The translations under genes were made by a program, and so were the position numbers. Of a stretch of DNA of 21,841 bases, positions 211-21,841 are shown in pieces. The notes under the pieces were generated by a model. It did no database searches. It saw nothing but the letters and a program-made list of their open reading frames with translations, and had not been told where the DNA came from. How positions within the stretch are numbered: the stretch's first letter is position 1; the number at the start of each line of letters is the position of its first letter. The DNA lies in contig JAPLKZ010000001.1 of assembly GCA_026387835.1 (NCBI GenBank), forward strand, positions 1-21,841, read 5' to 3'. This stretch comes from Candidatus Saganbacteria bacterium. GTDB taxonomy: Bacteria > Margulisbacteria > WOR-1 > JAKLHX01.

Positions 211-211
211 A

Positions 212-508: not shown

Positions 509-534
509 ATATAAAAAAGCGAGGTGATGAAAGA

Positions 535-744: not shown

Positions 745-1379
745 CAGTGCGTCAAGATAACTAATATTGCAATGCCAAGAATATGGCTATTCTCTAATCC
801 TAATAGTGAATAAGGAGAACCAGATGGGCAAGGGAGAATGAGTAATAACTTGTCCAAAGCTCTGGTGAAAAGGCAGATAAGGGGCAAACGTTGAATGTCA
901 CCAAGACGGTCTGCTTACCTGTGATTGGAAATGGCTAAGGTGAGGTCGTGCGAACTTGAATCCGTGTTTGAAATCTCGTGATCTATGAACATCTCAAAAC
1001 AACGATATGGGATGTAGTAAAAAAGGTAATCCTTAATGCCGTCATGTAAGGATGAAAATCATATTCCCGAATGATGAAGCCTCTGGTTAAATTAGGATAT
1101 AAACCATGCTCTTTTTACGAGGGCGTAAAGAACGTAAAGATTAGAATCAAATCAATAAGACTCTATCCCTAAAACGGGGTGTAGCGGAAGCCTAAAACCA
1201 ATCGAAACAGTGCAATATTGGAACTTGAGAACTTCACATCTCGGTCAGAAATGACTGGATTAACTGCAATTGATGTGAGATGTGAAGGGCGGAAGATTCG
1301 TAGTAGTCTGAAGTATGGAAAGCATACTACAAGGCAAAGGAATCTAGCTAATCTAAAATTCTAAAAGGAAGTAGGGAGT

Positions 1380-3125: not shown

Positions 3126-3226
3126 GGAACACGTGCCCTACTCTGTTACTATCCAATCTGCTTATATCCACAACTCATGACCCGCTTGCAGGTCTGCTTG
3201 GCTCAAACACAGATGGGAAGATATAC

Positions 3227-4207: not shown

Positions 4208-4278
4208 CCCTTTAATATAGCTCATTAACAAATGCGGAAGGCTTTAATTCGAAAGCCTTTAGCTAAAGAATTTATATA

Positions 4279-4313
4279 GCGTCAATGACCTGAGTGTTAT
4301 TGACGCTTTTTTT
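4279..4313 (+). terminator. rho-independent terminator downstream of dnaN
   Basis: A 9-bp stem agcgtcaat (4278-4286) / attgacgct (4299-4307) with a 12-nt loop, running into a 7-T tract (4307-4313). Confidence 0.65.
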
Positions 4314-4367
4314 ATTGCTTATGACTGCATAAAAATCTGACGCATTCTCTTATGTCAAATTTTTCTA

Positions 4368-4396
4368 TTGACAGTCTCACATACGAGATTTACAAT
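4368..4396 (+). promoter_or_regulatory. near-consensus sigma70-type promoter for the paralog array
   Basis: TTGACA (4368-4373), an exactly 17-nt spacer, then TACAAT (4391-4396). It sits in an AT-rich intergenic region about 84 nt upstream of ATG 4480. Confidence 0.6.
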
Positions 4397-4479
4397 TTGT
4401 GAAGAATAGATCCTTATGGATTAGATATAAGACAATAAATCATAATAGCTGATTATTTTAGGTGAGAAAGAGAATCATA

Positions 4480-7400
4480 ATGCAATGCCCAAAGTGTAAG
4501 CACGATAATCGAGAAGGCAGGAAGTTTTGTGCCAAATGCGGCGCCAAAATGGGATGGGTATGTCCAAAGTGTGGCTTTGAAAATGAAGCAGATGAGCTGT
4601 TCTGTGGTGAATGTGGAACTAAGCTTGGAGAATTTCAACCACCAATACAACCTACTATTCCCAAACTAGAGGACATGCAAAGCAGACTATACATCCCGGA
4701 GCCGCTCAGGAAGCGAATGGACTCAGCTATGCAGGAAATGGAGGGTGAGAATCGTCTCATTACTACACTCTTCGCTGATATATCGGGCTTTACCCAACTA
4801 TCGCAGGAACTATCACCAGAGGATATAGTAGAGAAGGTCAACCAGTGTTTCCAAGCGATAACTGACGCCATCTATCGCTGTGAAGGCAATATCAATCGTT
4901 TCATTGGTGACTGCGTATTAGCGTTCTTCGGCGCTCCACTTACCCATGAGGATGACCCGTATCGTGCTGTCATGTCTGGACTGGATATGATAAGTGCAGT
5001 ATCCAATATTGGTCTGAATATCAAGGTTGGCATCAACACTGGCATGATGTACTTCGGTCCCATCGGCACACAGGAACACAGTGAGATCAGTGCTTATGGT
5101 GAAGATATAAACCTTGCTAAACGCCTACAAGAGTCTGCACAGCCCGGTCAGGTCATCGTGGGAGAGAGGACACACCGATACACCCGCAAAGCCTTCGAAT
5201 TTGAGCAATTGCCACCATTGGAACTTAAAGGCATAAAGAAACCCATATCAGCATATATAGCCATCAAGCAGTTGTCAAAGCCAGAGAAGATAAGGGGTAT
5301 AGAAGGCTTGAGAGCAGAGATGATAGGTCGTGATGAGGAACTTGGTAAACTCAAAGAATCGCTTGATGACGTGATACATGGTCGTGGTCAGATGGTATCA
5401 ATCATAGGCGAAGCTGGAGTCGGTAAGTCACGTCTGGTAACTGAACTGAAGAAGCTTGCTCTTAACACTGATAATTCAGGTCCATTATGGTTAGAAGGTC
5501 GCTGTCTTTCATTGGGAGTGACAGCAAGCTACTGGGCATTTATAGACATATTCAGAGAATACTTCGGATGGGGAACTGATGAATCAGACACTACAAGGGC
5601 AGAGAGTATAGTCTCATGCTTGAAGGATATAGTATCTCAAGGTGATATGACGGAGGATCGCTATGATGAGATAGGACCAATGCTAGGGAATTTGTTATCT
5701 GTCAAGTTTGGCAATGACTGGGACGATAGGCTTAAAACCGCAGACCCACAGCAGATCAAGCACAGGACGTTCATGGCAGTTAGAGATTTCTTCATCGCTC
5801 TTTGTAAACGCCAACCTGTTATACTGGTGTTTGAGGATTTGCACTGGGCAGACAGCCTATCGCTTGATTTGATCTCATTGCTTATGGAAGCGTTAACGCT
5901 TGCACCTTTATTCTTAGTATGCGTGTATCGTCCGGAAAAAGAGCATAAGTCATGGCATCTAGGAACGATAGCATCACAGAAATGCTCGGAGAGATACACA
6001 GAGATCCATCTTAGAGAACTAACACATCAGCAAAGCCAAAGGCTAATAGAGTCATTACTAAGAATTGAGGACTTGCCGGTATCTGTTAAGGAAATGATAT
6101 TGAGTAAGTCACAGGGCAACCCATTCTTCGTAGAGGAAGTCATCCGTTCATTGATAGAGATGGGAATGGTATACAGAGAGAACGACAAGTGGTTCGCAAG
6201 GGCAGGCATAGAGTCAATCGCCGTTCCAGAGAGTATTCAAAGCGTAATACTGAGTCGTATAGACAGGCTGGAAGATGAGTTACGGCATATCCTTCAGAGC
6301 GCATCGGTCATAGGGTGTTTATTCCGTAGAAACCTTCTTGAGAGAGTGACACAGCAGGAATCAGAATTGGAGCGTGACTTATGGGATTTAGAAGATCATG
6401 AGCTAATCTATCAAGAAAGAATAGTTCCAGAGGAGGAGTATTCATTCAAGCATGCCTTCACACAGGAAACGGTGTATGGAAGTATCCTATCACGCAGGCG
6501 TTCAGCGTTCCATCAGCAGGTGGCGGAAGCTATGGAACTGTTATATGGAGACAGCCTAAGCGAATATTATGAGCAGTTGGCATATCATTATGACAGGAGC
6601 AGTAATGCAGAGAAAGCAGTGGAATATCTGTTGAAGGCTGGTGAGAAGTCACGGGAAGCATACTTGAATGATGATGCTATCAGGTATTTCCAGTGTGCAT
6701 TAGAGCGACTTAATACTTCTAAGTTGAGTGAGTCAAGAAAGGATTTGAAATTATCCGCACTCAAAGACTTGGGACAGGTCTGCTTTGGAACTGGAAAACT
6801 TATAGAAGCTGAGAATTTCTTCCGACAAGCGATCTCTTTAGGGAAAGAAATGGATTTAGCTATCCGTGAATTAGTGCGGATTTATTATTGTTTAGGGGAT
6901 GTATTTTATTATCAAAGCCGATATGATGAAATGCTTCATATAGGAGAAGATGGATTAGCACTTTTGGGTGATGACACGGAATCTGTGGAATCTGCTTTGA
7001 TGAATGATACTATAGCACAAGGTTATGATTCCAAAGGAGATAATAAAAAATATCAGGAATTTATGTTACGGGACGTGCAACTCATTCAAAGATTACCCTA
7101 TTCGGTGGAAATTGTTGGTATTTATTCTCACATTGCTGAAATGTATTCAAATTATGGAAATTTGGAAGATACAATGAAATGGTTACAAATCCAAGAACAG
7201 AAAGGGATACAATATCATGATTTGAGAGTATTGGCTGAGATGCACTTATTTACAAGTTTCACCATTTCTGAAAAAAAAGGTGATTTTCGTGATGGTATTT
7301 CACACCTTCAATATAGCTTGGAACTATTCACTAAAATAGGGGATGTTAAACAAATAGGCACTTCTTTTACTATTATGGGATATTATTTCTTACAGCTTGG

Positions 7401-8427
7401 AGAGTTTCAAGAAGCCGAGGAATATATATACAAAGCACTAGAGATTGTAAAGAGCATAAACCATAGGAGAGATATAGGAATATCATACCTTTTTATTGGT
7501 AATCTCTCACTTTATAAGTGTTTGTTTGAAAAAGCTATAGACAATTATCAAAAAGCCATTCAAATCTTTCAAGAGATTGGTTTTGTTATACTTGAGAAAT
7601 GGACATTTATCTGTTTAGGTCGCGCATATTTGGCCTTTGGAAAACATCAAGAAGCTCTAAAACAATTTCAAGGGACAATTGATTATGATCTCGGTGGTGC
7701 ATTAAGCGGGTTGGAAGAGATTTATATAGCAGAGGAATTCCAAGCCTTCTGTCGTAGCTTCAGAGAGGAGCATCCCTACGCTGGAGGCTCTCAATTCGTC
7801 CAATGGTTTCTGGAACCGTCAGAAGCCAGAGATTTCCCAAGAAGACTATTCCTTGACGATTTTGCAGAATCTCTTTCATCATGGAACTGGAATGATCCGT
7901 TTGGTGATTGCTCACACACAACAAATAATGATCTGGAAATTCATGCGGCAAATGGACGAAATCTCCAGTATCTTAATCTGAGTGCACCAAGAATTCTTCG
8001 ATTAGCAGAAGGGAACTTCGCTATCCAGACTGTTTGTATTCCTGTATCGGAAGATAAACCTACCATCGGTGGAATCCTGATCTGGAAGGATAAAGATAAT
8101 TACCTTCGCCTCGACAGAGGAACAAGGGGTAAATATGAGATCAACTTCTCAGGCTTCATTATAAACCAGTACTTAACCTTCGGTCGTGGGCGTCTGGTTT
8201 CTGATAGAATATTCTTGAGGCTTGAGCGGATTGATAACACAGTCAATGCCCTTTGCAGTCCAGATGAAAATGAATGGTTCACTGTCGGTCATGTAGAATT
8301 CCTTGTTGATGATCCTGTAGAGATTGGGCTTTTCGCCATCGGTATGATAGACCGCACCATCTATCACGGCGCATTTCCTGATGGAACAGCCATCATGTTT
8401 GAGTCATTCGAGTTGTGGGGACAATGA
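4480..8427 (+). CDS. paralog 1: double zinc ribbon - class III nucleotidyl cyclase - STAND/AAA NTPase - TPR-like repeats - ConA-like (DUF1349-like) C-terminal domain
   Basis: All paralogs begin M[QKR]C[PL]KC, so ATG 4480 is preferred over GTG 4462. Zinc ribbons (4x CxxC) 4486-4617. Cyclase about 4750-5270 (TLFADISGFT, RFIGDCVLAFFGAP, INTGMMYFGPIG, YGEDINLAKRLQ). Walker A GEAGVGKS 5407-5430. Walker B ILVFEDLHWAD 5821-5853. GNPFFVEEVIRSL begins at 6115. Helical/TPR-like region about 6520-7700. C-terminal beta-sandwich-like domain about 7850-8424 (WNWNDP, GGILIW, FLRLERIDN..ALCSPDENEW). Confidence 0.9.
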   Translation: MQCPKCKHDNREGRKFCAKCGAKMGWVCPKCGFENEADELFCGECGTKLGEFQPPIQPTIPKLEDMQSRLYIPEPLRKRMDSAMQEMEGENRLITTLFADISGFTQLSQELSPEDIVEKVNQCFQAITDAIYRCEGNINRFIGDCVLAFFGAPLTHEDDPYRAVMSGLDMISAVSNIGLNIKVGINTGMMYFGPIGTQEHSEISAYGEDINLAKRLQESAQPGQVIVGERTHRYTRKAFEFEQLPPLELKGIKKPISAYIAIKQLSKPEKIRGIEGLRAEMIGRDEELGKLKESLDDVIHGRGQMVSIIGEAGVGKSRLVTELKKLALNTDNSGPLWLEGRCLSLGVTASYWAFIDIFREYFGWGTDESDTTRAESIVSCLKDIVSQGDMTEDRYDEIGPMLGNLLSVKFGNDWDDRLKTADPQQIKHRTFMAVRDFFIALCKRQPVILVFEDLHWADSLSLDLISLLMEALTLAPLFLVCVYRPEKEHKSWHLGTIASQKCSERYTEIHLRELTHQQSQRLIESLLRIEDLPVSVKEMILSKSQGNPFFVEEVIRSLIEMGMVYRENDKWFARAGIESIAVPESIQSVILSRIDRLEDELRHILQSASVIGCLFRRNLLERVTQQESELERDLWDLEDHELIYQERIVPEEEYSFKHAFTQETVYGSILSRRRSAFHQQVAEAMELLYGDSLSEYYEQLAYHYDRSSNAEKAVEYLLKAGEKSREAYLNDDAIRYFQCALERLNTSKLSESRKDLKLSALKDLGQVCFGTGKLIEAENFFRQAISLGKEMDLAIRELVRIYYCLGDVFYYQSRYDEMLHIGEDGLALLGDDTESVESALMNDTIAQGYDSKGDNKKYQEFMLRDVQLIQRLPYSVEIVGIYSHIAEMYSNYGNLEDTMKWLQIQEQKGIQYHDLRVLAEMHLFTSFTISEKKGDFRDGISHLQYSLELFTKIGDVKQIGTSFTIMGYYFLQLGEFQEAEEYIYKALEIVKSINHRRDIGISYLFIGNLSLYKCLFEKAIDNYQKAIQIFQEIGFVILEKWTFICLGRAYLAFGKHQEALKQFQGTIDYDLGGALSGLEEIYIAEEFQAFCRSFREEHPYAGGSQFVQWFLEPSEARDFPRRLFLDDFAESLSSWNWNDPFGDCSHTTNNDLEIHAANGRNLQYLNLSAPRILRLAEGNFAIQTVCIPVSEDKPTIGGILIWKDKDNYLRLDRGTRGKYEINFSGFIINQYLTFGRGRLVSDRIFLRLERIDNTVNALCSPDENEWFTVGHVEFLVDDPVEIGLFAIGMIDRTIYHGAFPDGTAIMFESFELWGQ

Positions 8428-8446
8428 TATTGTATGAGGTTTCATT

Positions 8447-11400
8447 ATGAAATGCCCGAAATGCCAAAGCGAATATCAGGTAGGAGATAAATTCTGTAGA
8501 GAGTGTGGAACGAAGCTACCATCCATCTGCCCACAATGCAGACACGAAGTGAGTCCAAAAGATAAGTTTTGTCCCGAATGTGGAACCGACCTTGTAAAGA
8601 CCCAGAAGGTTGACCAAAAAGTAACTGCTCCAAGTCTGGAGGATTTATATACTAGGCTTCAGCGCTCCATGCCGCAATCCCTTGCCGAAAAGATTCAGAC
8701 TGCCATTGCTACAGAAGGTGAGAACAGGATATTGTCAATCCTATTCGCTGACGTCACCAATTCTGTTGCTATCACTGAAAATATGCCTCCGGAAGATTCT
8801 GCTGACCTGATCAGCGAATGTCTCAAGTCAATGACAGATCCGATACTCAGGCATGGCGGATTCATCAATCGCTATCTAGGAGACAGCGTTCTGGCATTTT
8901 TCGGCATACCTGAAACCCATGAAAATGATCCAGAAAGGGCTATATTGTCCGCACTGGAAATGCGAGATGCTGTAACAAAGCTGAATCTGAGCATAAAGAT
9001 CAGCATCAATACAGGCATGGTTTTCGTCGGCGCCATAGGTCCAGACTCTCATAGCGAGTTTACAGCTATGGGTACTGCAGTGAACCTTTCCGCTAGATTA
9101 AAGGACATAGCGGAACCGGGGCAGATCCTTGTAGGTGAAACCACGTATCGCTCAACGAGACGCTCTTTCGAGTTCCAGCCATTGCCTTTATTGACAATCA
9201 AAGGCATCAGCGAACCCATACATGCTTATGAAGTGATAAAGCCATTGCCAAAGCCAGAGAAAATTCGTGGCATCGAGGGCATAGGGTCAGAAATGATCGG
9301 CAGGGATAAGGAGTTCTCGGAACTAAAAGAATGTGTGGATGAGTTACTAGCCGGCAAGGGACAGATCGTCTCAATTATCGGGGAAGCAGGTGTTGGTAAA
9401 ACCAGATTGGTATCTGAGTTGAAAGAGTATCTCAGACAAAAAATAAAAGATAAAAAGGGATCCTCAATCTTTCATCCTTATTTAGAAGGTCGTGGCGTTT
9501 CCATTGGTGAATCTGTCGGTTACTGGGTATTCATTGACATTCTGAGAAGTTATCTGGAATTCTCTGAGCAAGACAGCCTTGATGACCGCAAAAAGAAAAT
9601 CATAGACAGGATGCAATCGCTTTTCCCGCAGAGATGGGAAGAGATTGTTCCCTACATAGGCAACCTGCTTTCGGTCAGATTTGACAATGAATGGGACGAA
9701 AAGATCAAGTATCTCCCACCGGAACAGGTTAAGTATCAGACTTTCCTTACGTTGAGGGACATATTTCTCATTCTTGCGCAGCAGAACCCGCTTCTGCTCA
9801 TTTTTGAGGATTTACATTGGGCAGATAACCTGTCATTAGATATGATAAACCTTCTGATGGATATTCTCACCATCTCACCGCTTATGATACTGTGCATATA
9901 TCGTCCGGAGAAGGAACACAAAAGCTGGCACATCGGGACACGTGCATCAGGCAAATGCCTTGAACGGTATAGGGAGATAACGCTCAGAGCATTGAACCCT
10001 CATGAGAGCAGGATGCTGATAGAGTCACTACTCACCATAGAAAACCTTCCTGAATCAGTTAAGCAGACTGTCACAAACAAGGCAGGAGGTAATCCATTCT
10101 TCGTTGAGGAAGTCATAAGGTCGTTGATAGAGAGAGGTGTAGTCTATCAGGACGGGGATAGATGGATCGCCAAGGAAGACATCAATGATGTAGAGGTGCC
10201 AGATACCATTCAGAGTGTTATCATGGCAAGGATAGACAGGTTAGAGGAGGAGGTTAAGTATGTGCTTCAGAGCGCATCGGTGATAGGCAGGCTATTCCGA
10301 TACAATCTGTTGCGATATATCACACAGCAGGAGGGAAATCTGGACGGTTACCTTTGGCAGTTAGAGGAGAGGGATCTGGTATATGAGGAGCACGCTATAC
10401 CTGAACTGGAATACAGTTTCAAGCATGTCCTTACGCAAGAGACAGCATACAACACAATATTATCGCGCAGGCGCAGAGAATTCCATCGCAAGGTGGCAGA
10501 GGGATACGAAGCATTGTATTCATCGCGCATAGAGGAGTGTTACGAGGAACTGGCATATCATTACAGCAGAAGTGATGATAAAGATAAAGCATTGGATTAT
10601 CTTGTGAAGGCAGGGGATAAATCTAAAAAGGTTTATGCCAATGAATCGGCTATTGAGTATTACAATCAGGCATTAAAGCTGGCTGAAGTTTCGGAATCAA
10701 AATCTGTTGATGTACTTGGGCATATCTACCAGAGCTTAGGGGAAATATACTTTCCGATGGCAAGGCATAAAGAGGCATTGGAATATTGTCATAAGGCATT
10801 AGAGTATATCACCAATGGGAAACTCCGATCCAGGATCTATGCAATAATGGGTTGGGCTTGTGAACGAGAAGCCAGGTATGATCAAGGATTGGAATATCTT
10901 AATGCTGGAGTTACCGAGCTTGGGGAAGACACAAATTCTGTTGAAATGGCGCGGATATGTATTCCCATGTCATGGATCAAAGGCGATCAGGGAAAGCTGG
11001 AAGAAGGCATAAAGATAGCGAAAAATGGGCTGAAAGTAGTAGAAGGAACTGATTCCATTCCCGAAATACAGGATTTACTCATCTTCCTTGCCCTTGTAGT
11101 CTGTTTGTCCGGTGATACAGATAAGGCTTTCGAGTATGCGCGAAAATCGGTGGAGGTTGCTGAGAAATCCGGGAATAGCTATTTTATCGCGAACACAACT
11201 CTCCATCTTGGATGGGTATACTGGTATGCTGGTGAGGATGATGTTTCTATTAGACTCATGGAAAAGGCATTAGAGATTTTCAAGAAGCTAGATTACCAGT
11301 TTTTCATTGGTCAAGCCTGCTCTTATATTGGGCGAGTGTATTATGGAAGGAACGATTGGGATATGGTTATTATATACTTTGAAGAGTTTCTAAAAATGCC

Positions 11401-12322: not shown

Positions 12323-12350
12323 AAATCAAGATGGCAAGAGGTGAAAGATA

Positions 12351-15300
12351 ATGCGATGTCCGAAATGCAGACACGAAAATCGTGATGAGGCTAAGTTTTG
12401 TGAGGAATGTGGGGAGAAGCTACAGCATAAATGCCCCAACTGCGGCGCTGAACTGAGACCAAACGCCAAATTCTGTGATGAGTGTGGAACTAAAGTTTCG
12501 GAGCAATCCTCTGCAAAAACCACTGCTATTCCCAAGCTCGAAGATATGCACGCACAACTGCAAAGCCTGATACCTGACGCCTTAGCTCAGAAATATCTAT
12601 CCGCAACACAGCAGGCTATTGGTGAGAACCGTCCCATAACTGCGCTGTTCGCTGACATATCAGGATTCACCCCTCTATCAGCTTCCCAATCATCAGAATC
12701 CGTATTCCAGTTGGTGCAGGAGTGCTTCAAGCAACTGGTTAGTATTGTCGCCAGTTATGAAGGAAGTATCAGCGGATTTCGTGGTGACGGTCTGCTTGCC
12801 CTATTTGGTGCGCCTATCCTGCATGAGAACGATGCTGAGAGAGCAATTCTAGCGGCAATAGATATGAGAAAGATGATGGAAGACAGACAACTTGGTATAT
12901 CTATTGGCATCAATACTGCCATGATGACTGTCGGTGAGATACAGACCCAGCTGCATAGTGAATATACTGCTTATGGAACAGATATTAACCTTGCCAAGAG
13001 ATTACAGGAAGCCGCTATGGCTGGCCAGATACTGGTAGGATCAGGAACTCATCGTCTTACCAGACGTGCATTCGACTTTCAGGAAATACCATCGCTGGAA
13101 CTGAAAGGATTCAGCCAACCAGTTACAGCTTATGTCCTACAACATATAAAATCACATCCTGAGAAACTGCGTGGTATCGAGGGATTGCGAGCAAGGATGG
13201 TTGGCAGGGATAAAGAATATGAGGAACTCATAGACGTTACAGAGGAATGGATTGCTGGCAAGGGACAGATAATATCTATCGTGGGTGAAGCAGGGATCGG
13301 CAAGTCAAGACTGGTATCTGAGTTGAAGGGTCACCTTGAAACAGATAGCAGTCATGCTCATCTATATCTCGAAGGGCGTTGCATCTCCATTGGACAACCT
13401 ATCAGCTACTGGCCGTTCCTTGACATTCTGAGAAGCTGGTTTAGTCTGAGTGAGGAGGATACCGAAGCTGAAATGGCAAATAAAGTTAGACAGCAGATAG
13501 AATCATTCATGCCAGATAGGACTGATGACATTCTCCCATTCTTGGGACAGCTTATGAACCTTCAGTTCGGTGGAGAGATAGACACAAGATTAACACATTA
13601 CAGTCCAGAGCAAGTGAAACAAGGAATAATGATGCGCCTGCGGGACATATTCGAGGCACTGTCACAGCGTAATAATCTGATGCTGATCCTTGAGGACCTT
13701 CATTGGGCGGATGAACTGTCACTTGACCTTATATCCTTACTGATGGATGAATTGATGGCGCATCCACTGATGTTAGTGTGTGTATACCGTCCAGAACAGG
13801 GACACAATGTCTCAAGGTTGAGCAGTATAGCTCGTAGGAAGTGTCTTGAGAGATACACGGAGATCGCACTCAAACCACTGCCTGATCCCGAAGGCAGAAG
13901 GCTTGTGCATGAACTTCTAGCGATAGATGACCTTCCAGACAGCGTGCGAGATATGATCCTTGCTAAGTCAGAGGGGAACCCGTTCTTCATTGAGGAAGTG
14001 ATCCGCTCATTAATGGAACAAGGGTTGGTATACAAGGATGATGACAGTTGGGTGGCAAAGGCTGACGTGATTGAGGTTCAAGTTCCGGATACGATACAGA
14101 GCGTTATACTAGAGCGAGTAGATAGGCTGGAATCAGAAGCCAAATATGTATTACAGTGTGCCAGTGTTATAGGCAGGCTGTTTAAGTATCGGTTATTAGA
14201 TCACATAACCCAGAAGCAGAAGGAATTGGATGGATACCTTGATGAATTCGAGGAGCGTTATCTTGTGTATCCAGAGCGAACAGTTCCAGAGATGGAGTAT
14301 GCCTTCAAGCACGTACTGACACAGGAAGCTACATATCAGGGGATACTGGAACAGAGAAAGCAGGCATTCCATCGTAATGTGGCGCTGGGTATCGAAAGGC
14401 TATATAAAGAACGTATAGAGGATTTTTACGAGGAATTAGTTTATCATTGGGAACGAAGCAAGGACAGAGAGAAAACACTTGAGTATCTTGTGAAGGCTGG
14501 AAAGAAATCGGCAAAGCATTATTTGAATCAGGTCGCTATTGATTATTATACCCTTGCAATTAAAATGGCTAATGAAGTTGGCATATTGGAGGATAGGTTG
14601 GCTGAGATATACGAAGCTAGAGGATGGGTTTATAATGATATGGGTTTTTACGAAGAATCTATATCTGATATGATGAAAGCAGCGGATTTTTATGCCAATA
14701 AATCAAAGCGTGCTAATATGTATAGGCAGATTGCTCGTAATTATTGGGCACGTATTACTGATATAGAACAAGGTTCCCAATATTTCTACAAAGCAATAGA
14801 GGAGATCGATCCTTCGGATAAATCCCGAGAGACTGCTGGCATTTATGAAGATGCGGGAGCATTCTTCATCTACATGGGTGGAGATACAAAAGAAGGGGAG
14901 CGCCTTTTGCGGAAAGCCATCGCTATATCAGAAGAGATGGGATATAATGATCTATTGGCTATGCATTACAGGTGGTTATATATACTCAATTGGAGTTCTG
15001 ACGAGGAGGAATTCAGGAAACAACGACAGTTTGCACGAGAAAAAGCAATTTCCTATCTACCTTACCTCAAACCTAATCTGTCCCAATATGCGGAAGTATG
15101 TGGTCAATTGGGGTGGGGTTTTCATTTCGATGATCGCTTTCTGATAGAAGCTTTTGAATCTGCTGTAAAGTCCGAGAATAACTGGTCGGTTGTGGCGTTT
15201 GGGTCAATGTTGGCAATCATATATTGTGGTCAGGGAAAGATTCAGAAAGCTATTGAAGTATACGAACAGGGATGGCGATCCGCCGTATTATCAAGACAGC

Positions 15301-16676
15301 TTCAAGGAGGGCATGTCATACGACTTACAATTGGTCTTGTTGGTATGTATGTATCACGAGAAGATCGATCCAGATTGTTGGACATGATGCTCCAGATGGT
15401 AGACTCGACCATAGAATTGCATAGTAAGTCAGAAGTTCATCCAACAGTTCAGCACCGGTGGAATGAAATATTAGAGGGTATATATAAGATAATTCATGCA
15501 ATGGCTCCGGAAATATACTATGAACTGGAGCATTTGCTGGAATCACATCTGAACGAAACCAATACCGATGGTGTGAGATTTTTCTATTATGGACAACTCA
15601 TGCTGTTAGCTTTACTAGATGGTCGTCCTGTTGATGCAGAATCCTATATGCAAGAATTACTAAAGCTACATCCATATGCAGGAAGCTTTGCCCAACGAAT
15701 ATCAAAAAAATTATTATATGATATCGAATTAATGAACGCGCTGTCAGAACAGCGAATGTCAATAACTACAAATTTGCTTAGATCTTCTGAGAAATTCGAT
15801 GATTTTGAGAAAGCCCTGGATGCCATGAGCTGGGTGTTGACAAAAGACGAAATCTCTGCCGCTATAGATTGGACTCACCTGAATTATACCGTCTTGAATG
15901 AGCTTCAGAAGCAACGCCGATTGCTTCTCATATATTCTGAAAGAAGCGATATACTGCGAGATGTGGAGTATATCTATGATTGTTATGATTATAGAAGCAA
16001 ACTTCAATCGCTGGCAGACCAAGTTCAGCAGACAGCTGCTAACGCTCTGCAAGAGGAAGGGATAACCCAATTATTTCTCGAACAGATGGAACCGTTGGAA
16101 ATTGGCTTACTTGAGTTAATGGATCAATTCAAGCAAGATCCTACAACTGCTGGTTGGGAATGGGTGGATCCCACAGGATATTGCCGCTATAAATCAGACG
16201 AAGAAGGTTACTTGCAGATTGACGTTCCGCCAGGACATGAATTGAGTGAAGGATTTTATATGCGTAATGCCCCCCTTATGTTACGGACTATTTCAGGTGA
16301 CTTTATCCTTGAGACGAAGATTGCTGACGGTTCCACCGGTATAAAGCGTGGCGGATTGCTCCTATGGAATTCAGAGACTAACTTTGCTCGTTTTGGGGTT
16401 GATTTTGATTATATATCTTATAAAGCAACTGCAAATGGAAAATTCATCAGTCCCGGAGTGCATCCATTTAAGGCAGAAAGAGTCTGGCTTAGGTTAGAAC
16501 GCAAGGGATCTCGTTTCACTGGGTATGTGAGTAATGATGGTAAATATTGGTATCGCTGTGGGTGGGCTGATATCACCATGAACGATTCTATCAAAGTGGG
16601 TATCTACGCTTCTTGTTTTTATCCACCGGCGACATCAACAAGATTTGAATATTTCAAGATATATAGACCCAAGTAA
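12351..16676 (+). CDS. paralog 3: double zinc ribbon - class III cyclase (type b) - STAND/AAA NTPase - TPR-like repeats - extra helical module - ConA-like C-terminal domain
   Basis: SD agaggtga 12337-12344; 28-nt gap. Cyclase about 12630-13140 (ALFADISGFT, SGFRGDGLLALFGAP, INTAMMTVGEIQ, YGTDINLAKRLQ). Walker A GEAGIGKS 13284-13307. MLILEDLHWADELSLDL and GNPFFIEEVIRSLME are present. C-terminal domain about 16150-16673 (WEWVDPTG, ISGDFILETKI, GGLLLW, VWLRLERKGSRFTGYVSNDGKYW). Confidence 0.9.
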   Translation: MRCPKCRHENRDEAKFCEECGEKLQHKCPNCGAELRPNAKFCDECGTKVSEQSSAKTTAIPKLEDMHAQLQSLIPDALAQKYLSATQQAIGENRPITALFADISGFTPLSASQSSESVFQLVQECFKQLVSIVASYEGSISGFRGDGLLALFGAPILHENDAERAILAAIDMRKMMEDRQLGISIGINTAMMTVGEIQTQLHSEYTAYGTDINLAKRLQEAAMAGQILVGSGTHRLTRRAFDFQEIPSLELKGFSQPVTAYVLQHIKSHPEKLRGIEGLRARMVGRDKEYEELIDVTEEWIAGKGQIISIVGEAGIGKSRLVSELKGHLETDSSHAHLYLEGRCISIGQPISYWPFLDILRSWFSLSEEDTEAEMANKVRQQIESFMPDRTDDILPFLGQLMNLQFGGEIDTRLTHYSPEQVKQGIMMRLRDIFEALSQRNNLMLILEDLHWADELSLDLISLLMDELMAHPLMLVCVYRPEQGHNVSRLSSIARRKCLERYTEIALKPLPDPEGRRLVHELLAIDDLPDSVRDMILAKSEGNPFFIEEVIRSLMEQGLVYKDDDSWVAKADVIEVQVPDTIQSVILERVDRLESEAKYVLQCASVIGRLFKYRLLDHITQKQKELDGYLDEFEERYLVYPERTVPEMEYAFKHVLTQEATYQGILEQRKQAFHRNVALGIERLYKERIEDFYEELVYHWERSKDREKTLEYLVKAGKKSAKHYLNQVAIDYYTLAIKMANEVGILEDRLAEIYEARGWVYNDMGFYEESISDMMKAADFYANKSKRANMYRQIARNYWARITDIEQGSQYFYKAIEEIDPSDKSRETAGIYEDAGAFFIYMGGDTKEGERLLRKAIAISEEMGYNDLLAMHYRWLYILNWSSDEEEFRKQRQFAREKAISYLPYLKPNLSQYAEVCGQLGWGFHFDDRFLIEAFESAVKSENNWSVVAFGSMLAIIYCGQGKIQKAIEVYEQGWRSAVLSRQLQGGHVIRLTIGLVGMYVSREDRSRLLDMMLQMVDSTIELHSKSEVHPTVQHRWNEILEGIYKIIHAMAPEIYYELEHLLESHLNETNTDGVRFFYYGQLMLLALLDGRPVDAESYMQELLKLHPYAGSFAQRISKKLLYDIELMNALSEQRMSITTNLLRSSEKFDDFEKALDAMSWVLTKDEISAAIDWTHLNYTVLNELQKQRRLLLIYSERSDILRDVEYIYDCYDYRSKLQSLADQVQQTAANALQEEGITQLFLEQMEPLEIGLLELMDQFKQDPTTAGWEWVDPTGYCRYKSDEEGYLQIDVPPGHELSEGFYMRNAPLMLRTISGDFILETKIADGSTGIKRGGLLLWNSETNFARFGVDFDYISYKATANGKFISPGVHPFKAERVWLRLERKGSRFTGYVSNDGKYWYRCGWADITMNDSIKVGIYASCFYPPATSTRFEYFKIYRPK

Positions 16677-16690
16677 TCTGGAGTATTGAT

Positions 16691-19600
16691 ATGAAATGTC
16701 TTAAATGCAAGCAAGATAATCCGTCAGAAGCTCTGTTCTGTATGAAGTGCGGGACAAAGCTTGAGCGAAAGTGTCCCAACTGTGGAGCAGAATATCCAGA
16801 AGAAGCTGCATTCTGCATGAAATGTGGAAAAAAACTAAAGGAAGCACCAGAATCGGCAATCCCCAAGCTAGAAGACATGCAAGATAAACTCTACATCCCA
16901 GAACCACTCAGGCAGAGGATGGATACTGCCAAACAAGAGTTACAGGGAGAAAACCGTCTTGTCACAGCGTTATTCGCAGATATATCAGGATTCACTCCTC
17001 TATCCAACCAACACTCTCCTGAGAATGTGGTAAACATAGTGAACGACTGCTTCAAGGTCATAGTTGATACTATATTCAGATACGAAGGCAATCCTAATCG
17101 GTTCATAGGCGACAACGTCCTAGCATTCTTCGGTGCGCCAATAACACATGAGAACGATCCAGAACGTGCTATTATGTCAGCACTGGAAATGCGTGATAAA
17201 GTCAGAGAACTATCACTTAATATATCAGTTGGCATTAATACTGGAATGATGTATTTCGGACCCATCGGCACTAAGGAGCATCTGGAAGTCAGCGCATACG
17301 GACCAGACATCAATCTTGCCAAGAGATTGCAGGAGATAGCAAATCCCGGTCAGATACTGGTAGGTTCTGGGACATACAGGCTTACCAAGAGAGCATTCGA
17401 CTTCCAACAGACACCATCACTTAACCTGAAAGGCATAGATAAACCCGTGACTGCTTATGAGGCAGCAAAGATAAAAGAGCATCCAGAGAAGCTCAGAGGC
17501 ATAGAGGGCTTACAGTCACGCATGATCGGCAGGGAACATGAATTTACCGAGTTGAGAGACACAGTGGATATGTGGCTATCCGGTCAAGGACAAATGGTCA
17601 GTATAATAGGTGAAGCGGGTATAGGCAAGTCAAGGTTAGTCAAAGAGATAAAGGGGTTTATCAACGATAAGCCATGTCTATGGCTAGAAGGACGTTGTAT
17701 ATCCATAGGACAGCCCATAAGCTATTGGCCATTTATTGATATGTTCAGAACGCTATTCGATCTGAAGGAGGATGATAACGAGAAGGATATTGCTAGGAAG
17801 TTAAAGGATAATATAACAGAGCTATTCCCTAATAGAGCAGATGATATATTGCCATTCATAGGACACCTTATGTCCATCCAGTTCGGAGATGAGCTAGACA
17901 GCAAGCTTGATGGATATGGTTCAGAGCAGATCAGGTATCAGACTATGGTGAGACTGAGGGACATATTCGCAACCATAGCAAGAAGCAAGCCTTTATTACT
18001 CATACTGGAGGACTTGCACTGGAGTGATGAGTTATCCCTTGACCTAATAGCGATGCTGATGGATGAGCTTGTTACCAGTCAGATGCTTCTGTTGTGTGTT
18101 TACAGACCGGAGCAGGATCATAAGTGCTGGAAACTCAGTGGGATGGCACAGCGTAAGTGCTTTGAGAGCTATACTGAGTTACAGTTGAAGAAGCTCAACA
18201 GGACACAGAGCTATGAGATGGTTCACTCACTTCTTGCCATAGATGCCCTTCCAGATAGTGTCAGGGATATGATCCTTGTCAAGTCAGAGGGTAATCCATT
18301 CTTCATAGAGGAAGTGATACGTTCACTCATGGAGAGGGAATTGGTGTATAAAGATGGTGATAGATGGACAGCGAAGTCAGGCATAGAACATATAGACGTT
18401 CCCGACACAATACATGGGGTGATAATGGAGCGAATTGACAGGTTAGAGACAGAGACGAAGTATGTCCTACAATGTGCCTCTGTCATCGGCAGATTATTCA
18501 GATACAGGCTTCTTGATCACTTAATGAGCCATGAGCGTAAACTGGATGATTATCTCGATGAGCTAGAGGGTAGGGAGTTAGTGTTAGAGGAGCGTGCTAT
18601 GCCAGAGCTAGAATACACGTTCAAGCACGTACTGACACAGGAAGCGACCTACCAGACCATCCTAGAGCAAAGGAGAAGGCAGTTCCACAGACAGGTTGCA
18701 GAAGGCATAGAACGATTGTATCAGGATCGGATAGAGGAATTCTATGAGGAGCTTGCTTATCACTGGGAGCGAAGCAGGGATCAGGAAAAGACGTTAGAAT
18801 ATCTTATAAAGTCTGGGGAGAAAGCCACAAAAAACTACCTAAATGACATTGCTATTGACTATTATACACGGGCAATTCAGTTGGCGGAGGAACTAAGGAT
18901 TACCGGTGACAGGCTTGCAGAAATATACGAAAGGCGTGGAGGTGTATACCAATCCATCGGTTTTCTGGAGGAATGTGTCTCCGATACCACTGAGGCTGCG
19001 GATCTTTACACACAGAGAACTAGGCGTGCCAGCATGTATGCGCGGATTTCCCGTCTTTATTATGGAACTATATGTCAAGGGCAGGCAACAGATGAAGGTC
19101 TAATCTATTCTCGTAAAGCCATTGAGGAGATTGACCCGACAGATAGATCACGAGAAGCTATTATGACGTATCTACGTGCAGGCTGGGTCCGTAGTCTGGA
19201 AGAATGGGAGCCCATTCTGAATAAAGCCATAGCTATTTCAGAGGAGGAGGGATATAGAGATCTCCTTGCCCACCTACATGCGCTTCTATACTATCTACGC
19301 CTGGGAGTGGGTGGACTAGAAGAGCAAGCTAGGCTTGAGCGGGAAAAGGCTCTCTATTATCTACCGCACCTCAAGCATGACTTAACTGAATACGCAGCAG
19401 CTTGTAGTTTATTGGCGTTTTGGGGGAGTGAGAATGAGCGAATTAGCCTTGCAAGGGAAGCTATGGAAGCCGCGGCTAAATCCGGGAAGAGCTGGTCAAC
19501 TGTGGTATCGGCAGATCAACTGGGCACATATTATCTCCGCCAGGGAGAGACTCAAAGAGCCATAGAGATATTTGAGGAAGGATGGCAGGCTGGCGTCCGA

Positions 19601-21001
19601 AGCAGACAGCTTCACTGGACTATGATCGGAGTTACTCGCAACCTTATGCACCTGTATGTCTCCATCGGGCAGTCTTCAAAGGTTCACGAAATGATGCTCC
19701 AGATGGTGGATTCCACGTTTGTAATGCACGGCAAGTCCATAGTTTACTCTATAATGCGACAAAGATGGAATAACCTGGTGGAAGAGACCTATGAATTCCT
19801 GTACACTATTGCTCCGGAGGTATACTACCAACTGAAACAGTCACTGGAATCCTGCTTGAGCGAAGCTGATACTGATAGTGTGCGGTTCTTCTACATGGTA
19901 CAGGTCATACTGCTGGCTTTACTGGGTGGTCGCCAGGAGGACGCAGAGGTACTAGCACAGGAGCTAATGGAATTGCGACCTCGGGCAGGAAACTTTGCAA
20001 AGAGGGTTTCTCAGAGGGTCGAATATGCCGCTGAATTGTTGAATTCTCAAAAGGACCAAAGACCGATGATAGCAAGAAAACTCTTGAGTTCACTTGATTC
20101 TTTCGAGAATCTACATGAAGCCCTGACTGCTCTGTCCTGGGTGCTTCCAAAGGGCATAATTGCGCAGGCAGTAGACTGGAACCATGCGCAGCGGCTGGCA
20201 CTGGATTACATCAAGGGGCATATTAAGCATATACTGGATATGGTCTCACCAGTATGGATACAGGTAGGGCGTATTTTCAGACGATATGACCGTGAAGATG
20301 ACCTGCGTTGGATACTGGATCAGATACAGCAAACCGAACCAGATGGTATGAGGAAATATGATCTCACTCAGTTGCTGCTGGAACCAGTGGAATTAAAAGA
20401 ATCAGGTTTTCCTGAGTTGTTAGAGCAATTCACTCAGGACCCAGTATCTGCTGGTTGGGAATGGGTGAATCCTGTGAAAACCAACAGTTACTCGACGGAG
20501 AAGGATGGTTTGCAGATTACTGCCCTTCCATACCCTCATTCTAGTTATCTTGAGGATCATGATTTTCCACGGATGTTGAGATACATTTCTGGCGATTTCA
20601 TAGCTGAAACGAAGATTTTTGACGGGGATAACGGAAAGAAGTCCGGCGGCCTGCTTGTGTGGAAGAATGAGGTTAAATGCATCCGTCTTGAGGTACCGTC
20701 CAATGATTTGGAGGAAGATATAGTCTGTTATTGGGCAAGTTCCGCAGGAAAACCTATAGACGCGGGCACACATCCCTTTGAGGCAAAAGAAGCCTGGCTG
20801 CGGTTAGAGCGAAAGGGAGATCGATTTGTCGGATATGTGAGTTCCGATGGGGAAAATTGGTATCGCTGTGGTCAAGTGGACGTCCCAATGAAAGACCCTA
20901 TCCAATTGGGGATTCTCGCCTGCTGCCCCCGAGGGCCGACGACTTCGACGCGTTTTGAGTATTTCAAGATATATAGACCTGATAAACAGACCGATTCATA
21001 A
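16691..21001 (+). CDS. paralog 4: double zinc ribbon - class III cyclase (type a) - STAND/AAA NTPase - TPR-like repeats - extra helical module - ConA-like C-terminal domain
   Basis: SD tggag; 14-nt gap. Cyclase motifs ALFADISGFT, NRFIGDNVLAFFGAP, INTGMMYFGPIG, YGPDINLAKRLQ. Walker A GEAGIGKS 17609-17632. LLILEDLHWSDELSLDL and GNPFFIEEVIRSLME are present. C-terminal domain about 20452-20985 (WEWVNP, ISGDFIAETKI, GGLLVW, AWLRLERKGDRFVGYVSSDGENW). Confidence 0.9.
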   Translation: MKCLKCKQDNPSEALFCMKCGTKLERKCPNCGAEYPEEAAFCMKCGKKLKEAPESAIPKLEDMQDKLYIPEPLRQRMDTAKQELQGENRLVTALFADISGFTPLSNQHSPENVVNIVNDCFKVIVDTIFRYEGNPNRFIGDNVLAFFGAPITHENDPERAIMSALEMRDKVRELSLNISVGINTGMMYFGPIGTKEHLEVSAYGPDINLAKRLQEIANPGQILVGSGTYRLTKRAFDFQQTPSLNLKGIDKPVTAYEAAKIKEHPEKLRGIEGLQSRMIGREHEFTELRDTVDMWLSGQGQMVSIIGEAGIGKSRLVKEIKGFINDKPCLWLEGRCISIGQPISYWPFIDMFRTLFDLKEDDNEKDIARKLKDNITELFPNRADDILPFIGHLMSIQFGDELDSKLDGYGSEQIRYQTMVRLRDIFATIARSKPLLLILEDLHWSDELSLDLIAMLMDELVTSQMLLLCVYRPEQDHKCWKLSGMAQRKCFESYTELQLKKLNRTQSYEMVHSLLAIDALPDSVRDMILVKSEGNPFFIEEVIRSLMERELVYKDGDRWTAKSGIEHIDVPDTIHGVIMERIDRLETETKYVLQCASVIGRLFRYRLLDHLMSHERKLDDYLDELEGRELVLEERAMPELEYTFKHVLTQEATYQTILEQRRRQFHRQVAEGIERLYQDRIEEFYEELAYHWERSRDQEKTLEYLIKSGEKATKNYLNDIAIDYYTRAIQLAEELRITGDRLAEIYERRGGVYQSIGFLEECVSDTTEAADLYTQRTRRASMYARISRLYYGTICQGQATDEGLIYSRKAIEEIDPTDRSREAIMTYLRAGWVRSLEEWEPILNKAIAISEEEGYRDLLAHLHALLYYLRLGVGGLEEQARLEREKALYYLPHLKHDLTEYAAACSLLAFWGSENERISLAREAMEAAAKSGKSWSTVVSADQLGTYYLRQGETQRAIEIFEEGWQAGVRSRQLHWTMIGVTRNLMHLYVSIGQSSKVHEMMLQMVDSTFVMHGKSIVYSIMRQRWNNLVEETYEFLYTIAPEVYYQLKQSLESCLSEADTDSVRFFYMVQVILLALLGGRQEDAEVLAQELMELRPRAGNFAKRVSQRVEYAAELLNSQKDQRPMIARKLLSSLDSFENLHEALTALSWVLPKGIIAQAVDWNHAQRLALDYIKGHIKHILDMVSPVWIQVGRIFRRYDREDDLRWILDQIQQTEPDGMRKYDLTQLLLEPVELKESGFPELLEQFTQDPVSAGWEWVNPVKTNSYSTEKDGLQITALPYPHSSYLEDHDFPRMLRYISGDFIAETKIFDGDNGKKSGGLLVWKNEVKCIRLEVPSNDLEEDIVCYWASSAGKPIDAGTHPFEAKEAWLRLERKGDRFVGYVSSDGENWYRCGQVDVPMKDPIQLGILACCPRGPTTSTRFEYFKIYRPDKQTDS

Positions 21002-21018
21002 TATAGAGGATATGGTTT

Positions 21019-21841
21019 ATGCAATGTCCCAAATGCAAATATGAGAATAGAAAAGGTAGAAAATTCTGCTCTGAATGTGGAACTGAACTTGGTTGGGTAT
21101 GTCAGCACTGTGGTTTTGAAAACGAACCGAACGAAAAATTCTGCGGCGGATGTGGTAAACCTTCTGATACAAAACCCTCTACGGAAACTGTAGAAACGAA
21201 CATCCCGACGTTAGAGAAAATTCATTCAGAATCTAAGAACTGGATACCCGACGCCCTTGCACAGAAATATCTGTCAGCAGAACAACAATATACTGGAGAG
21301 AATAGACCTATCACAGCATTGTTTGCTGATATATCAGGATTCACTCCGCTATCCGCTACCAAGTCGTCTGAGACGATATTCCAAATGGTGCAGGATTGCT
21401 TTAAGCAATTGGTCAGTATCGTTGCTAAATATGAAGGTAGCATAAGCGGATTTAGAGGCGATGGACTGTTAGCACTATTTGGTGCCCCAATACTCCACGA
21501 GAACGATGCTGAACGTGCTATCCTGTCAGCAATTGATATGCGTAATGTCATGCAGGATTATCAATTGCAGGTATCTATAGGTATCAATACAGCAATGATG
21601 ACCGTTGGAGAGATACAGACACAATTGCATAATGAATACACAGCCTATGGAACAGATATTAACCTAGCAAAGAGATTACAGGAATCAGCGGGAGCTGGAC
21701 AGATACTCGTAGGTAGTGGAACACACCGTCTTACACGCCGGGCATTTGATTTTGATATAATTCAAAACCTTACAGTGAAGGGATTTGCTCAATCTGTCAC
21801 AGCCTATTCCGTTAAGCAAGTGAAGGCGCATCCTGAGAAGC
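21019..21841 (+). CDS. paralog 5 (5' part only, runs off the window): double zinc ribbon - class III cyclase (type b)
   Basis: Absent from the ORF track because no stop is reached. ATG 21019 with SD agagga 21005-21010; 17-nt gap. My translation: MQCPKCKYENRKGRKFCSECGTELGWVCQHCGFENEPNEKFCGGCG...IPDALAQKYLSAEQQYTGENRPITALFADISGFTPLSA...SGFRGDGLLALFGAPILHENDAERAILSAIDMR...INTAMMTVGEIQTQLHNEYTAYGTDINLAKRLQ...KAHPEK. The frame is open to base 21841. Confidence 0.85.
   Translation, partial: MQCPKCKYENRKGRKFCSECGTELGWVCQHCGFENEPNEKFCGGCGKPSDTKPSTETVETNIPTLEKIHSESKNWIPDALAQKYLSAEQQYTGENRPITALFADISGFTPLSATKSSETIFQMVQDCFKQLVSIVAKYEGSISGFRGDGLLALFGAPILHENDAERAILSAIDMRNVMQDYQLQVSIGINTAMMTVGEIQTQLHNEYTAYGTDINLAKRLQESAGAGQILVGSGTHRLTRRAFDFDIIQNLTVKGFAQSVTAYSVKQVKAHPEK

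Follow-up and report, generated by a model that had tools for sequence, protein, structure and literature searches.

A tandem array of at least five putative STAND-gated class III cyclases in Candidatus Saganbacteria

What might a bacterium do with a head-to-tail series of large cyclase–ATPase fusions? The question is raised by a 21,841-nt stretch of Candidatus Saganbacteria DNA (hereafter, the window), in which the initial annotation saw a candidate NLR-like sensor array with cyclic-nucleotide output. We favour, with a probability of roughly 0.55, the reading that the locus encodes a set of soluble, STAND-gated class III cyclases, at least five in number and paralogous to one another, that take part in ordinary second-messenger signalling.

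ORF listing and translation of the window yielded four complete genes and one that is cut off, all on the + strand (G1 to G5). G1 (4480..8427, 1315 aa) carries zinc ribbons, a cyclase, an AAA_16 ATPase, TPRs and a ConA-like end, and G2 (8447..12322, 1291 aa) is built in the same way, with a GH43_C2/DUF1349 end at aa 1095-1287. G3 (12351..16676, 1441 aa) has a longer, weakly TPR-like helical middle and DUF1349 at aa 1299-1437, and G4 (16691..21001, 1436 aa) shares the architecture of G1-G3, with DUF1349 at aa 1269-1427. G5 (21019..21841) comprises zinc ribbons and a cyclase in its first 274 codons and has no stop where the window ends; the array therefore runs on, as first annotated. The intergenic gaps are exactly 19, 28, 14 and 17 nt from G1-G2 to G4-G5, and every gap contains a Shine–Dalgarno sequence of the GAGG/GGAG/AGGTGA type, which bears out the described layout of five same-strand genes that each have their own ribosome-binding site. 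The ATG start of G1 gives MQCPKC, in line with the starts of the other four proteins, and an alternative GTG lies upstream at 4462. The G3 protein is identical to P0005 and the G4 protein to P0001, which comes from a Candidatus Saganbacteria MAG; the G5 fragment, used as a query, found no identical protein. Logan contigs with G2 extend to only 4.3-4.5 kb.

A terminator-like hairpin with a T-run (4278..4307, + strand; 12-pair stem, 5 GC pairs) lies 3′ of a dnaN-like gene and probably marks the upstream boundary of the transcription unit of the array. It is followed by the best sigma-70-like match (4368..4396, + strand; TTGACA-17-TACAAT, 11/12), about 84 nt 5′ of the G1 ATG, which we take from its consensus match to be the putative promoter. 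Two further promoter-like matches (12018..12082, + strand; 10/12 each, also by consensus only) lie in the 3′-terminal part of G2, some 300 nt upstream of G3, and are a possible internal start for G3-G5. The totals in the window are near chance, both for promoter-like sites (55, versus 41.8 ± 6.3 in shuffled sequences) and for terminator-like sites (12, versus 10.7 ± 3.6). The annotated arrangement of one promoter and no internal terminator is therefore plausible as judged by a consensus scan, its sole basis; the site named as the promoter is the best match, but the two sites in G2 qualify the claim that it is the only one. No Rfam family matched the window at the gathering score, and Rfam gave no riboswitch or leader upstream of G1. 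A Qrr-like Rfam match on the terminator hairpin (positions 1-4500, E <= 1) was dismissed as a chance match, and a search of the window for a 5′ exon of the dnaN-like gene gave nothing convincing.

All full copies share one domain order: a double zinc ribbon, a class III cyclase, an AAA_16 STAND ATPase, a TPR/helical region and a ConA-like end. Pfam detected DZR/Zn_ribbon in every copy, Guanylate_cyc (PF00211) at 58.4-81.4 bits in G1-G5 (cut-off 21.9) and AAA_16 at 75-95 bits (cut-off 32.6), so that both enzymatic assignments exceed their cut-offs wherever a copy reaches the regions concerned. TPR_12 scores 90-95 bits in G1 and G2, whereas the TPR matches in G3 and G4 are weak; TPR_MalT matches are also present in the array proteins. 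No HTH family, LuxR included, was found by Pfam in any copy. DUF1349 (PF07081) scores 44.0 bits in G3 and 44.9 bits in G4 (cut-off 32.4), and GH43_C2 scores 34.9 bits in G2 (cut-off 22.7). The ConA-like end of G1 is visible only through alignment with its paralogues (24-28% identity, E 1e-14 to 1e-18). The common layout described initially is thus confirmed in outline, with strong TPRs confined to G1 and G2 and a sub-threshold ConA-like end in G1.

The C-terminal 237 aa of G4 (20288..20998, + strand) comprise a short helical linker and a ConA-like β-sandwich, which AF2 modelled with a pLDDT of 90.6. The best Foldseek matches are GH43 C-terminal domains, the DUF1349 structures 3o12/3mep and CBM66, and these uphold the lectin-like end of the earlier description. 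The domain has conserved motifs (WxW, WKD, RLER and YxSxDGxxW), a set that suggests that it may be a constant module rather than a variable sensor.

The NOD module of G4 (17498..18970, + strand; aa 270-760) contains a Walker A (GEAGIGKS), a Walker B (LLLILEDLHWSD, versus …HWAD in G1-G3), a GNPFF motif and helical and winged-helix parts; the family motifs GEAGxGKS and EDLHW(A/S)D are invariant. Sequence searches of the PDB with this module returned nothing meaningful, with no detectable similarity to any solved STAND. Its AF2 model (pLDDT 77.5) matched PAB2304, the STAND-TPR protein 6mfv (PH0952-type), ORC, Avs4 (8dgf), CED-4, MalT (8bob) and plant NLRs in Foldseek, with E values of 5e-6 to 5e-4 but TM scores of only 0.25-0.35. 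The Pfam architecture supports the effector–NOD–sensor order of NLR/STAND proteins that was noted at the outset, and the predicted fold may point the same way.

The structure closest to the cyclase domain is Cya2 (2w01, E 8e-23). Alignment to it shows that the two metal-binding Asp and the transition-state Asn and Arg are kept in G1-G5; in the G4 domain (16958..17452, + strand; aa 90-254) these are Asp97, Asp141, Asn208 and Arg212. Both metal Asp, the transition-state Arg and Walker A and B are invariant in 12 family members, and the Asn is kept in 90 of 118 homologues and replaced in about a quarter. From these residues, the cyclase and the ATPase appear to be catalytically competent in all copies. 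A second cyclase ‘domain’ at about residues 490-530, indicated in most proteins by a custom cyclase HMM, was spurious. Canonical cyclases specify ATP with a Lys/Asp pair and GTP with a Glu/Cys-type pair. Neither pair occurs in the array, which has Arg/Ser in G1 and G4, Arg/Thr in G2 and Gly/Thr in G3 and G5, and the family is split about evenly between these two pocket types, Arg/Ser-Thr and Gly/Thr (R 53 and G 58 of 118). Because the substrate-specifying residues are non-canonical, the product could differ from cAMP or cGMP.

Our best reading of the proteins is that they are a variant of the Rv0386-type cyclase–ATPase fusion. The Mclx proteins (Rv0386, Rv1358 and Rv2488c) consist of a class III cyclase, an AAA/NB-ARC-type ATPase, in some cases TPRs, and a LuxR HTH, and share with the array proteins solubility and the succession of an N-terminal cyclase, a STAND-type ATPase and a helical region. 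The array proteins differ in the absence of the HTH, in their additional N-terminal double zinc ribbon and C-terminal ConA-like domain, in their arrangement as five or more genes and in their Arg/Ser-Thr or Gly/Thr pockets. The substrate-specifying residues of Rv0386 are reportedly also non-canonical. MalT/LAL-type regulators have an AAA_16 NOD and a TPR-like sensor in common with the array, together with a proposed ligand-gated, ATP-dependent oligomerisation, but their output is a C-terminal DNA-binding domain rather than an N-terminal enzyme. The cyclase, AAA_16 and helical core is also shared with the TOMM kinase/cyclase fusion model TIGR03903 (260-275 bits over about 660 aa); this match covers model positions 266-928 only and is far below the cut-off of 705.75, the kinase domain is absent and no TOMM genes are nearby.

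The N-terminal module of about 740 aa recurs, at 31-43% identity, in ZnR–cyclase–AAA_16–TPR proteins of about 1100-1300 aa from Desulfobacterota, Chloroflexota and rhizobial/Cupriavidus megaplasmids. Most of these lack the ConA-like end, some occur in tandem sets of 2-4 and their sole annotation is ‘adenylate/guanylate cyclase domain-containing protein’; our literature search found no characterisation of them. The ConA end is present in 95 of the best 120 metagenome matches, and the ATPase module alone falls into 37,496 clusters (50% identity, E <= 1e-30). Members of the family occur widely, and replicons of soil bacteria carry several copies each. The initial suggestion that such an array had not been described is partly right, in that the search found no paper on the architecture; the architecture itself is very common in public data, where it is annotated piecewise. 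To our knowledge, no full-length member has been studied biochemically. The plasmid matches are to megaplasmids/chromids of soil bacteria, and say nothing about mobility.

The array paralogues are 39-53% identical overall (G3 and G5, 73% over 274 aa). For each copy, the closest orthologue elsewhere, at 57-82% identity, exceeds any paralogue within the array, and the array is therefore not a recent expansion. On this sequence comparison, the five copies are best described as old, separately conserved subfamilies.

We examined the neighbourhoods of relatives at 80 related genome loci with 118 immediate neighbours (raw counts). The most frequent Pfam family among these neighbours is cNMP_binding (8), followed by HATPase_c (6), and 97 of the 118 are singletons; a search for a conserved protein partner therefore yielded mostly singletons, and only the cNMP-binding group stood out. 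Fifteen cNMP-binding ORFs were found in 14 of the 80 loci, every one on the strand of the cyclase and within 2.75 kb of it, 10 of them within 500 nt. Their fused domains are a histidine-kinase ATPase, Crp HTH, SpoIIE phosphatase, rhodanese, an MFS transporter and one patatin. The co-orientation of these genes supports the cyclic-nucleotide output that was first proposed. In L095 and L006, the loci of the closest G3/G5-type relatives, the neighbouring gene encodes a cNMP_binding+SpoIIE protein (13 nt away in L095); these are the only 2 of about 12 ConA-type or closest-relative loci with such a partner, and most of the linkage comes from shorter relatives without the ConA end. ConA-type relatives are mostly surrounded by housekeeping/carbohydrate genes, with scattered toxin–antitoxin and restriction–modification genes. 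Examples include a GH51 arabinofuranosidase 21 nt upstream (L090), nearby CBM9 and Laminin_G_3 genes (L092) and nearby sugar isomerases (L096).

In the signalling mechanism that we propose, the C-terminal TPR/helical solenoid and ConA-like β-sandwich would bind a ligand, perhaps a glycan or some other small or surface molecule, to judge from the fold and from certain neighbourhoods. Binding would free the AAA_16 NOD for nucleotide exchange and oligomerisation, as in MalT, Apaf-1 and Avs. Class III cyclase domains work only as dimers, so that active sites would form once oligomerisation joins the N-terminal cyclases, and a cyclic nucleotide would be made; the residues are present, and from them we infer the activity and its product. 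The product would be read by classical cNMP-binding regulators of the cNMP-histidine-kinase type, Crp and cNMP-SpoIIE, as linkage in the loci of relatives suggests. The array most likely lets various inputs converge on one or two messengers. NLR-style ligand-induced oligomerisation would thereby turn binding directly into a diffusible second messenger. Cyclase–STAND fusions are a very large family and could serve as a simple test of the idea of an oligomerisation-gated dimer enzyme, and the array would offer five natural variants of one switch in one operon, with two pocket types.

An alternative that we consider unlikely is that adjacent Arg- and Gly-type copies are obligate partners, forming heterodimeric cyclases or sensor/helper STAND pairs. 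The near-even division of pocket types in the family is consistent with this idea, as is the adjacency of G3 (G/T), G4 (R/S) and G5 (G/T) in the window. Another contig (L088) has a G3 orthologue followed by a G4 orthologue, again 14 nt apart, and at L005 an R/S gene precedes a G/T gene; however, these two loci may be close relatives with inherited synteny. Proteins of about 2250-2350 aa consist of two whole units fused, with a degenerate second cyclase. By contrast, all five copies in the window have a full catalytic set, and the window therefore lacks the complementary degeneracy that is the signature of heterodimers. Moreover, the neighbours G1 and G2 share the Arg type. Tandem sets of 2-4 are known elsewhere among relatives; P0079, an orthologue of G2, is solitary, like many others. 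In a wider version, which we hold only as a rather improbable speculation, the tandem copies would form a hetero-oligomeric Arg-pocket/Gly-pocket network (sensor/helper or heterodimeric cyclases) that might be an NLR-like surveillance battery. Such a network is compatible with the recurring G3-G4 adjacency, the alternating pockets and the natural two-unit fusions, and its Arg/Gly pairs would make different or unusual cyclic nucleotides.

We find it similarly improbable that the array is antiviral, with the TPR/ConA end of each copy sensing a phage protein, oligomerisation following, and the cyclic nucleotide then made switching on an effector that kills the cell or arrests its growth, in the manner of Pycsar/CBASS. 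The proteins have the tripartite order of Avs/AVAST, and the NOD fold matches include Avs4 and plant NLRs, but their effector is a cyclase instead of a nuclease, protease or TIR, and PADLOC Avs/NLR models matched neither the NOD nor the sensor. The cyclase is class III-like, as in Pycsar, and matches PycC models with E values down to 4e-18; these matches reflect the generic cyclase fold only, and PycC proteins lack the NOD–TPR–ConA regulatory body. Beyond PycC, PADLOC returned a generic TPR model and marginal matches on the array, none of them full-length. The non-canonical base pockets and the tandem diverged copies would also suit immunity, but instead of diversifying fast, the copies fall into subfamilies that are conserved as groups of orthologues. 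Toxin–antitoxin, Uma2 or restriction–modification genes accompany some relatives, and one relative (L067) is linked with a cNMP-binding patatin phospholipase; against this, several contexts are plainly housekeeping, and of the 15 cNMP-binding proteins linked to relatives, 14 have non-lethal domains (12 kinase, Crp, phosphatase or rhodanese and one MFS transporter among them). The partners of relatives are thus regulators, not the TM/TIR effectors or other killers of Pycsar type, and a scan of the window found no cNMP-binding gene. Among the 118 neighbours, PADLOC matched Pycsar effector models over their cNMP-binding part only and otherwise gave about six singletons, with no defence-island signal across the 80 loci, and phage records contain at most a bare cyclase domain. 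The immune reading in the initial annotation is therefore not supported, and an NLR-like layout with a cyclase is insufficient for calling a locus immune.

Highly improbable is a role of the cyclase domain as a nucleotide-binding regulatory module in proteins that act through their zinc ribbons or ConA end, for example as scaffolds: this role has been proposed for Rv1358 and Rv2488c and is raised in the Mclx literature for copies without catalytic residues (PMC4452763), and the non-canonical specificity residues and the frequent replacement of the transition-state Asn among homologues would fit it, but both metal Asp, the Asn and the Arg are kept in all five copies, and the co-oriented cNMP-binding genes beside relatives favour a diffusible cyclic nucleotide.

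Five giant paralogous genes (G1–G5) follow one another on the forward strand of the Saganbacteria contig. ORF calls and translation bear out the initial annotation of this array, with gaps of 19, 28, 14 and 17 nt that each contain a Shine–Dalgarno-like motif. G1 (4480–8427), G2 (8447–12322), G3 (12351–16676) and G4 (16691–21001) are complete and G5 (21019 to beyond 21841) is truncated; G3 and G4 are identical to NCBI proteins of a Candidatus Saganbacteria metagenome-assembled genome. We set the start of G1 at ATG 4480 rather than GTG 4462 because all copies share the N-terminus M-x-C-P/L-K-C. The five genes plausibly form a single operon. The proposal of a sole promoter without internal terminators is plausible: the best promoter-like site in the region (4368–4396, forward strand, 11/12 consensus match) precedes G1, but two forward-strand sites (10/12 each) lie within the 3′ end of G2 (12018–12082), and totals of promoter-like and terminator-like sites in the window are near those of shuffled sequences. 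A terminator-like hairpin (4278–4307, forward strand) occurs downstream of a dnaN-like gene.

Pfam searches recovered a double zinc ribbon, a Guanylate_cyc domain (58–81 bits; cut-off, 21.9) and the AAA_16 STAND ATPase module (NOD; 75–95 bits; cut-off, 32.6) in every copy that reaches the region concerned. The remainder of the proposed zinc ribbon–cyclase–STAND–TPR–ConA-like architecture is less uniform, as TPR matches are strong in G1 and G2 but weak in G3 and G4, and the C-terminal end matches DUF1349 and/or GH43_C2 in G2–G4 but is recognized in G1 by paralogue alignment only. The last 237 residues of G4 yielded a confident AF2 model (pLDDT 90.6), for which the closest solved folds are the ConA-like C-terminal domain of GH43 beta-xylosidase, the DUF1349 structures 3o12 and 3mep, and CBM66. 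The NOD model is less confident (pLDDT 77.5) and matches, with low TM-scores, PAB2304, the PH0952-type STAND–TPR protein 6mfv, ORC/Cdc6, Avs4, CED-4, MalT and plant NLRs; a sequence-profile search of the PDB with the NOD region gave no match. Three motifs are invariant: Walker A (GEAGxGKS), Walker B (EDLHWAD/SD) and GNPFF.

Alignment to the Cya2 cyclase (2w01, E = 8e-23) shows that both metal-binding Asp residues and the transition-state Asn and Arg are kept in all five copies. Two further cyclase residues normally read the substrate base. G1, G2 and G4 have Arg paired with Ser or Thr at these positions (motif NRFIGD), and G3 and G5 have Gly paired with Thr (motif SGFRGD). The two types divide 118 homologues nearly equally (53 Arg-type versus 58 Gly-type). 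The two pocket types are sharply separated, and in SGFRGD the Arg is shifted by two positions. Neither pair is the canonical ATP or GTP pair, and the product of the G1–G5 cyclases cannot be predicted from sequence. Recurring adjacency of the two types, as on the metagenome contig L005, where a Gly-type gene comes after a G4-like gene of the Arg type, and natural two-unit fusions suggest that Arg-type and Gly-type proteins could be obligate pairs. However, the catalytic sets are fully intact in all copies, and orthologues also stand alone, including the solitary G2 orthologue P0079.

The enzyme–NOD–sensor layout of G1–G5 is that of STAND switches, and class III cyclase active sites form upon dimerization. 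Given this layout and the need of the cyclase to dimerize, ligand-gated oligomerization is the most economical mechanism. A ligand would trigger ATP-dependent oligomerization, oligomerization would assemble active cyclase dimers and the cyclic nucleotide would be read by ordinary cNMP-binding regulators.

The genes beside relatives, together with the intact cyclase residues, uphold the predicted cyclic-nucleotide output. Although no cNMP-binding gene is present inside the window, a local HMM search found 15 such ORFs in 14 of 80 genome loci, all on the cyclase strand and within 2.75 kb, and 10 within 500 nt, so that the linkage in relatives resembles that of an operon. Their partner domains are mostly regulatory: histidine-kinase-type ATPase (seven), Crp HTH (three), rhodanese (two), and SpoIIE phosphatase, MFS transporter and NTE-type patatin (one each). 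At the loci of the closest relatives of G3 and G5, a gene combining cNMP_binding and SpoIIE domains lies 13 nt (L095, 2638–3828) or 344 nt (L006, 8452–9651) upstream. This phosphatase (PP2C; about 400 amino acids) may serve as a dedicated receptor, and such a role would point to an output by partner switching.

An immune role, raised initially, is possible but unlikely, as its positive support ends with the NLR-like architecture. In the window proteins, PADLOC matches (to PycC models) were confined to the cyclase region. The closest genes flanking the family gene on either side at the 80 loci encode 118 proteins, among which PADLOC recovered scattered singletons and the part of Pycsar effector models that covers cNMP binding. 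All-against-all BLAST left 97 of the 118 as singletons; the largest cluster comprises signalling proteins with common PAS, SpoIIE or cNMP-binding domains, and the commonest Pfam domains are cNMP_binding (8) and HATPase_c (6). At L067 (9167–11434), the cyclase strand encodes, 2.7 kb downstream of a relative, the sole partner resembling a defence-type effector: a protein that combines two cNMP-binding domains with a patatin phospholipase and an NTE-type P-loop. Loci of the ConA type have housekeeping neighbours (L093) or carbohydrate-related neighbours (a GH51 enzyme 21 nt upstream at L090, CBM9/LamG proteins at L092 and sugar isomerases at L096), with scattered toxin–antitoxin, Uma2 or restriction–modification genes. 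Small toxin–antitoxin-type genes (PIN, HicA and DUF433/DUF5615) and Uma2 endonuclease genes recur just downstream of ConA-type genes at L086, L090, L092 and L100, and may simply be common throughout such genomes or hint weakly at variable regions. At three loci (L028, 6943–9762; L036, 1879–4791; L069, 4147–7611), the cyclase–STAND gene adjoins a different, AfsR-like STAND regulator (BTAD, NB-ARC and TPR).

The window array, with five or more genes, is the largest set found. Within about 10 kb, 73 of the 80 genome loci have one family gene, six have two, one has three and one has four; on metagenome contigs, L005 carries a tandem pair and L094 two convergent genes within 10 kb, and L088/L089 is a further case. 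Recent duplication is ruled out, as each copy is closer to a full-length outside relative (G1 to P0108, 64%; G2 to P0079, 61%; G3 to P0008, 67%; G4 to P0002, 82%, and P0003, 57%; the G5 N-terminus to P0057, 78%) than to any in-array paralogue (39–53% identity). The gene order is partly conserved across organisms: L088/L089 (9744–15534), from another organism, carries a G2-like 3′ remnant, a G3 orthologue and a G4 orthologue (75% identity over 388 amino acids), the latter two separated by 14 nt as in the window. The G2-like remnant, a 77-amino-acid fragment without a called gene, may be a decayed copy.

Proteins with the full architecture are numerous in public data. The homologue search yielded 5,266 proteins at E ≤ 1e-10 among 8,000 candidates scored, and 95 of the 120 best matches have the ConA-like end. 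A NOD module profile matched 37,496 representatives of 50%-identity clusters (E ≤ 1e-30). Species-representative genomes contain at least 580 loci (Chloroflexota, Desulfobacterota, Poribacteria, NC10, Rokubacteria, Actinomycetota and others), mostly encoding proteins of 1100–1300 amino acids without the ConA end. Megaplasmids of Sinorhizobium, Rhizobium, Cupriavidus and Burkholderia also carry the N-terminal 740-amino-acid module (338 records, 31–33% identity), and phage records contain bare cyclase domains only. In JGI annotation the parts of the proteins are already named separately: class 3 adenylate cyclase, predicted ATPase, TPR and ‘regulation of enolase protein 1 (concanavalin A-like)’. 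Full-text literature searches returned no paper on the full architecture or on DUF1349 in such a setting, and among described kinds the mycobacterial cyclase–ATPase–LuxR (Mclx) group (PMC4452763) comes closest. The array belongs to the known cyclase–STAND kind, with novel features: the front zinc ribbon, the ConA-like end, the lack of an HTH and the array of five or more genes. Its family is very common yet unstudied. Some members (P0262, P0270, P0279, P0290, P0296, P0316 and others; about 2250–2350 amino acids) are single-chain fusions of two complete cyclase–NOD units. The first cyclase usually has Lys/Thr with D/D/N/R, although several are degenerate there too (for example, P0279, P0294, P0263 and P0274), and the second has lost its catalytic residues, an arrangement that recalls the C1/C2 pseudo-heterodimer found in animal cyclases.

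Upstream of the array, the dnaN-like gene (3101–4207, forward strand) has all three DNA_pol3_beta domains, and its alignment to DnaN starts only at about residue 30–45. Its frame opens directly after a decayed reverse transcriptase/maturase of the group II intron type, which is broken up into three forward-strand frames (1380–2318, 2332–2808 and 2775–3125). Rfam searches detected no ribozyme domain of a group II intron, and a search of the window for a 5′ dnaN exon gave nothing convincing. Two small forward-strand ORFs upstream of the reverse transcriptase (155–508 and 535–744), one with a SWIM-like CxC...CxH motif without a Pfam match and the other encoding a DUF2997 protein (49 bits), look like mobile-element cargo adjoining the intron remnant.
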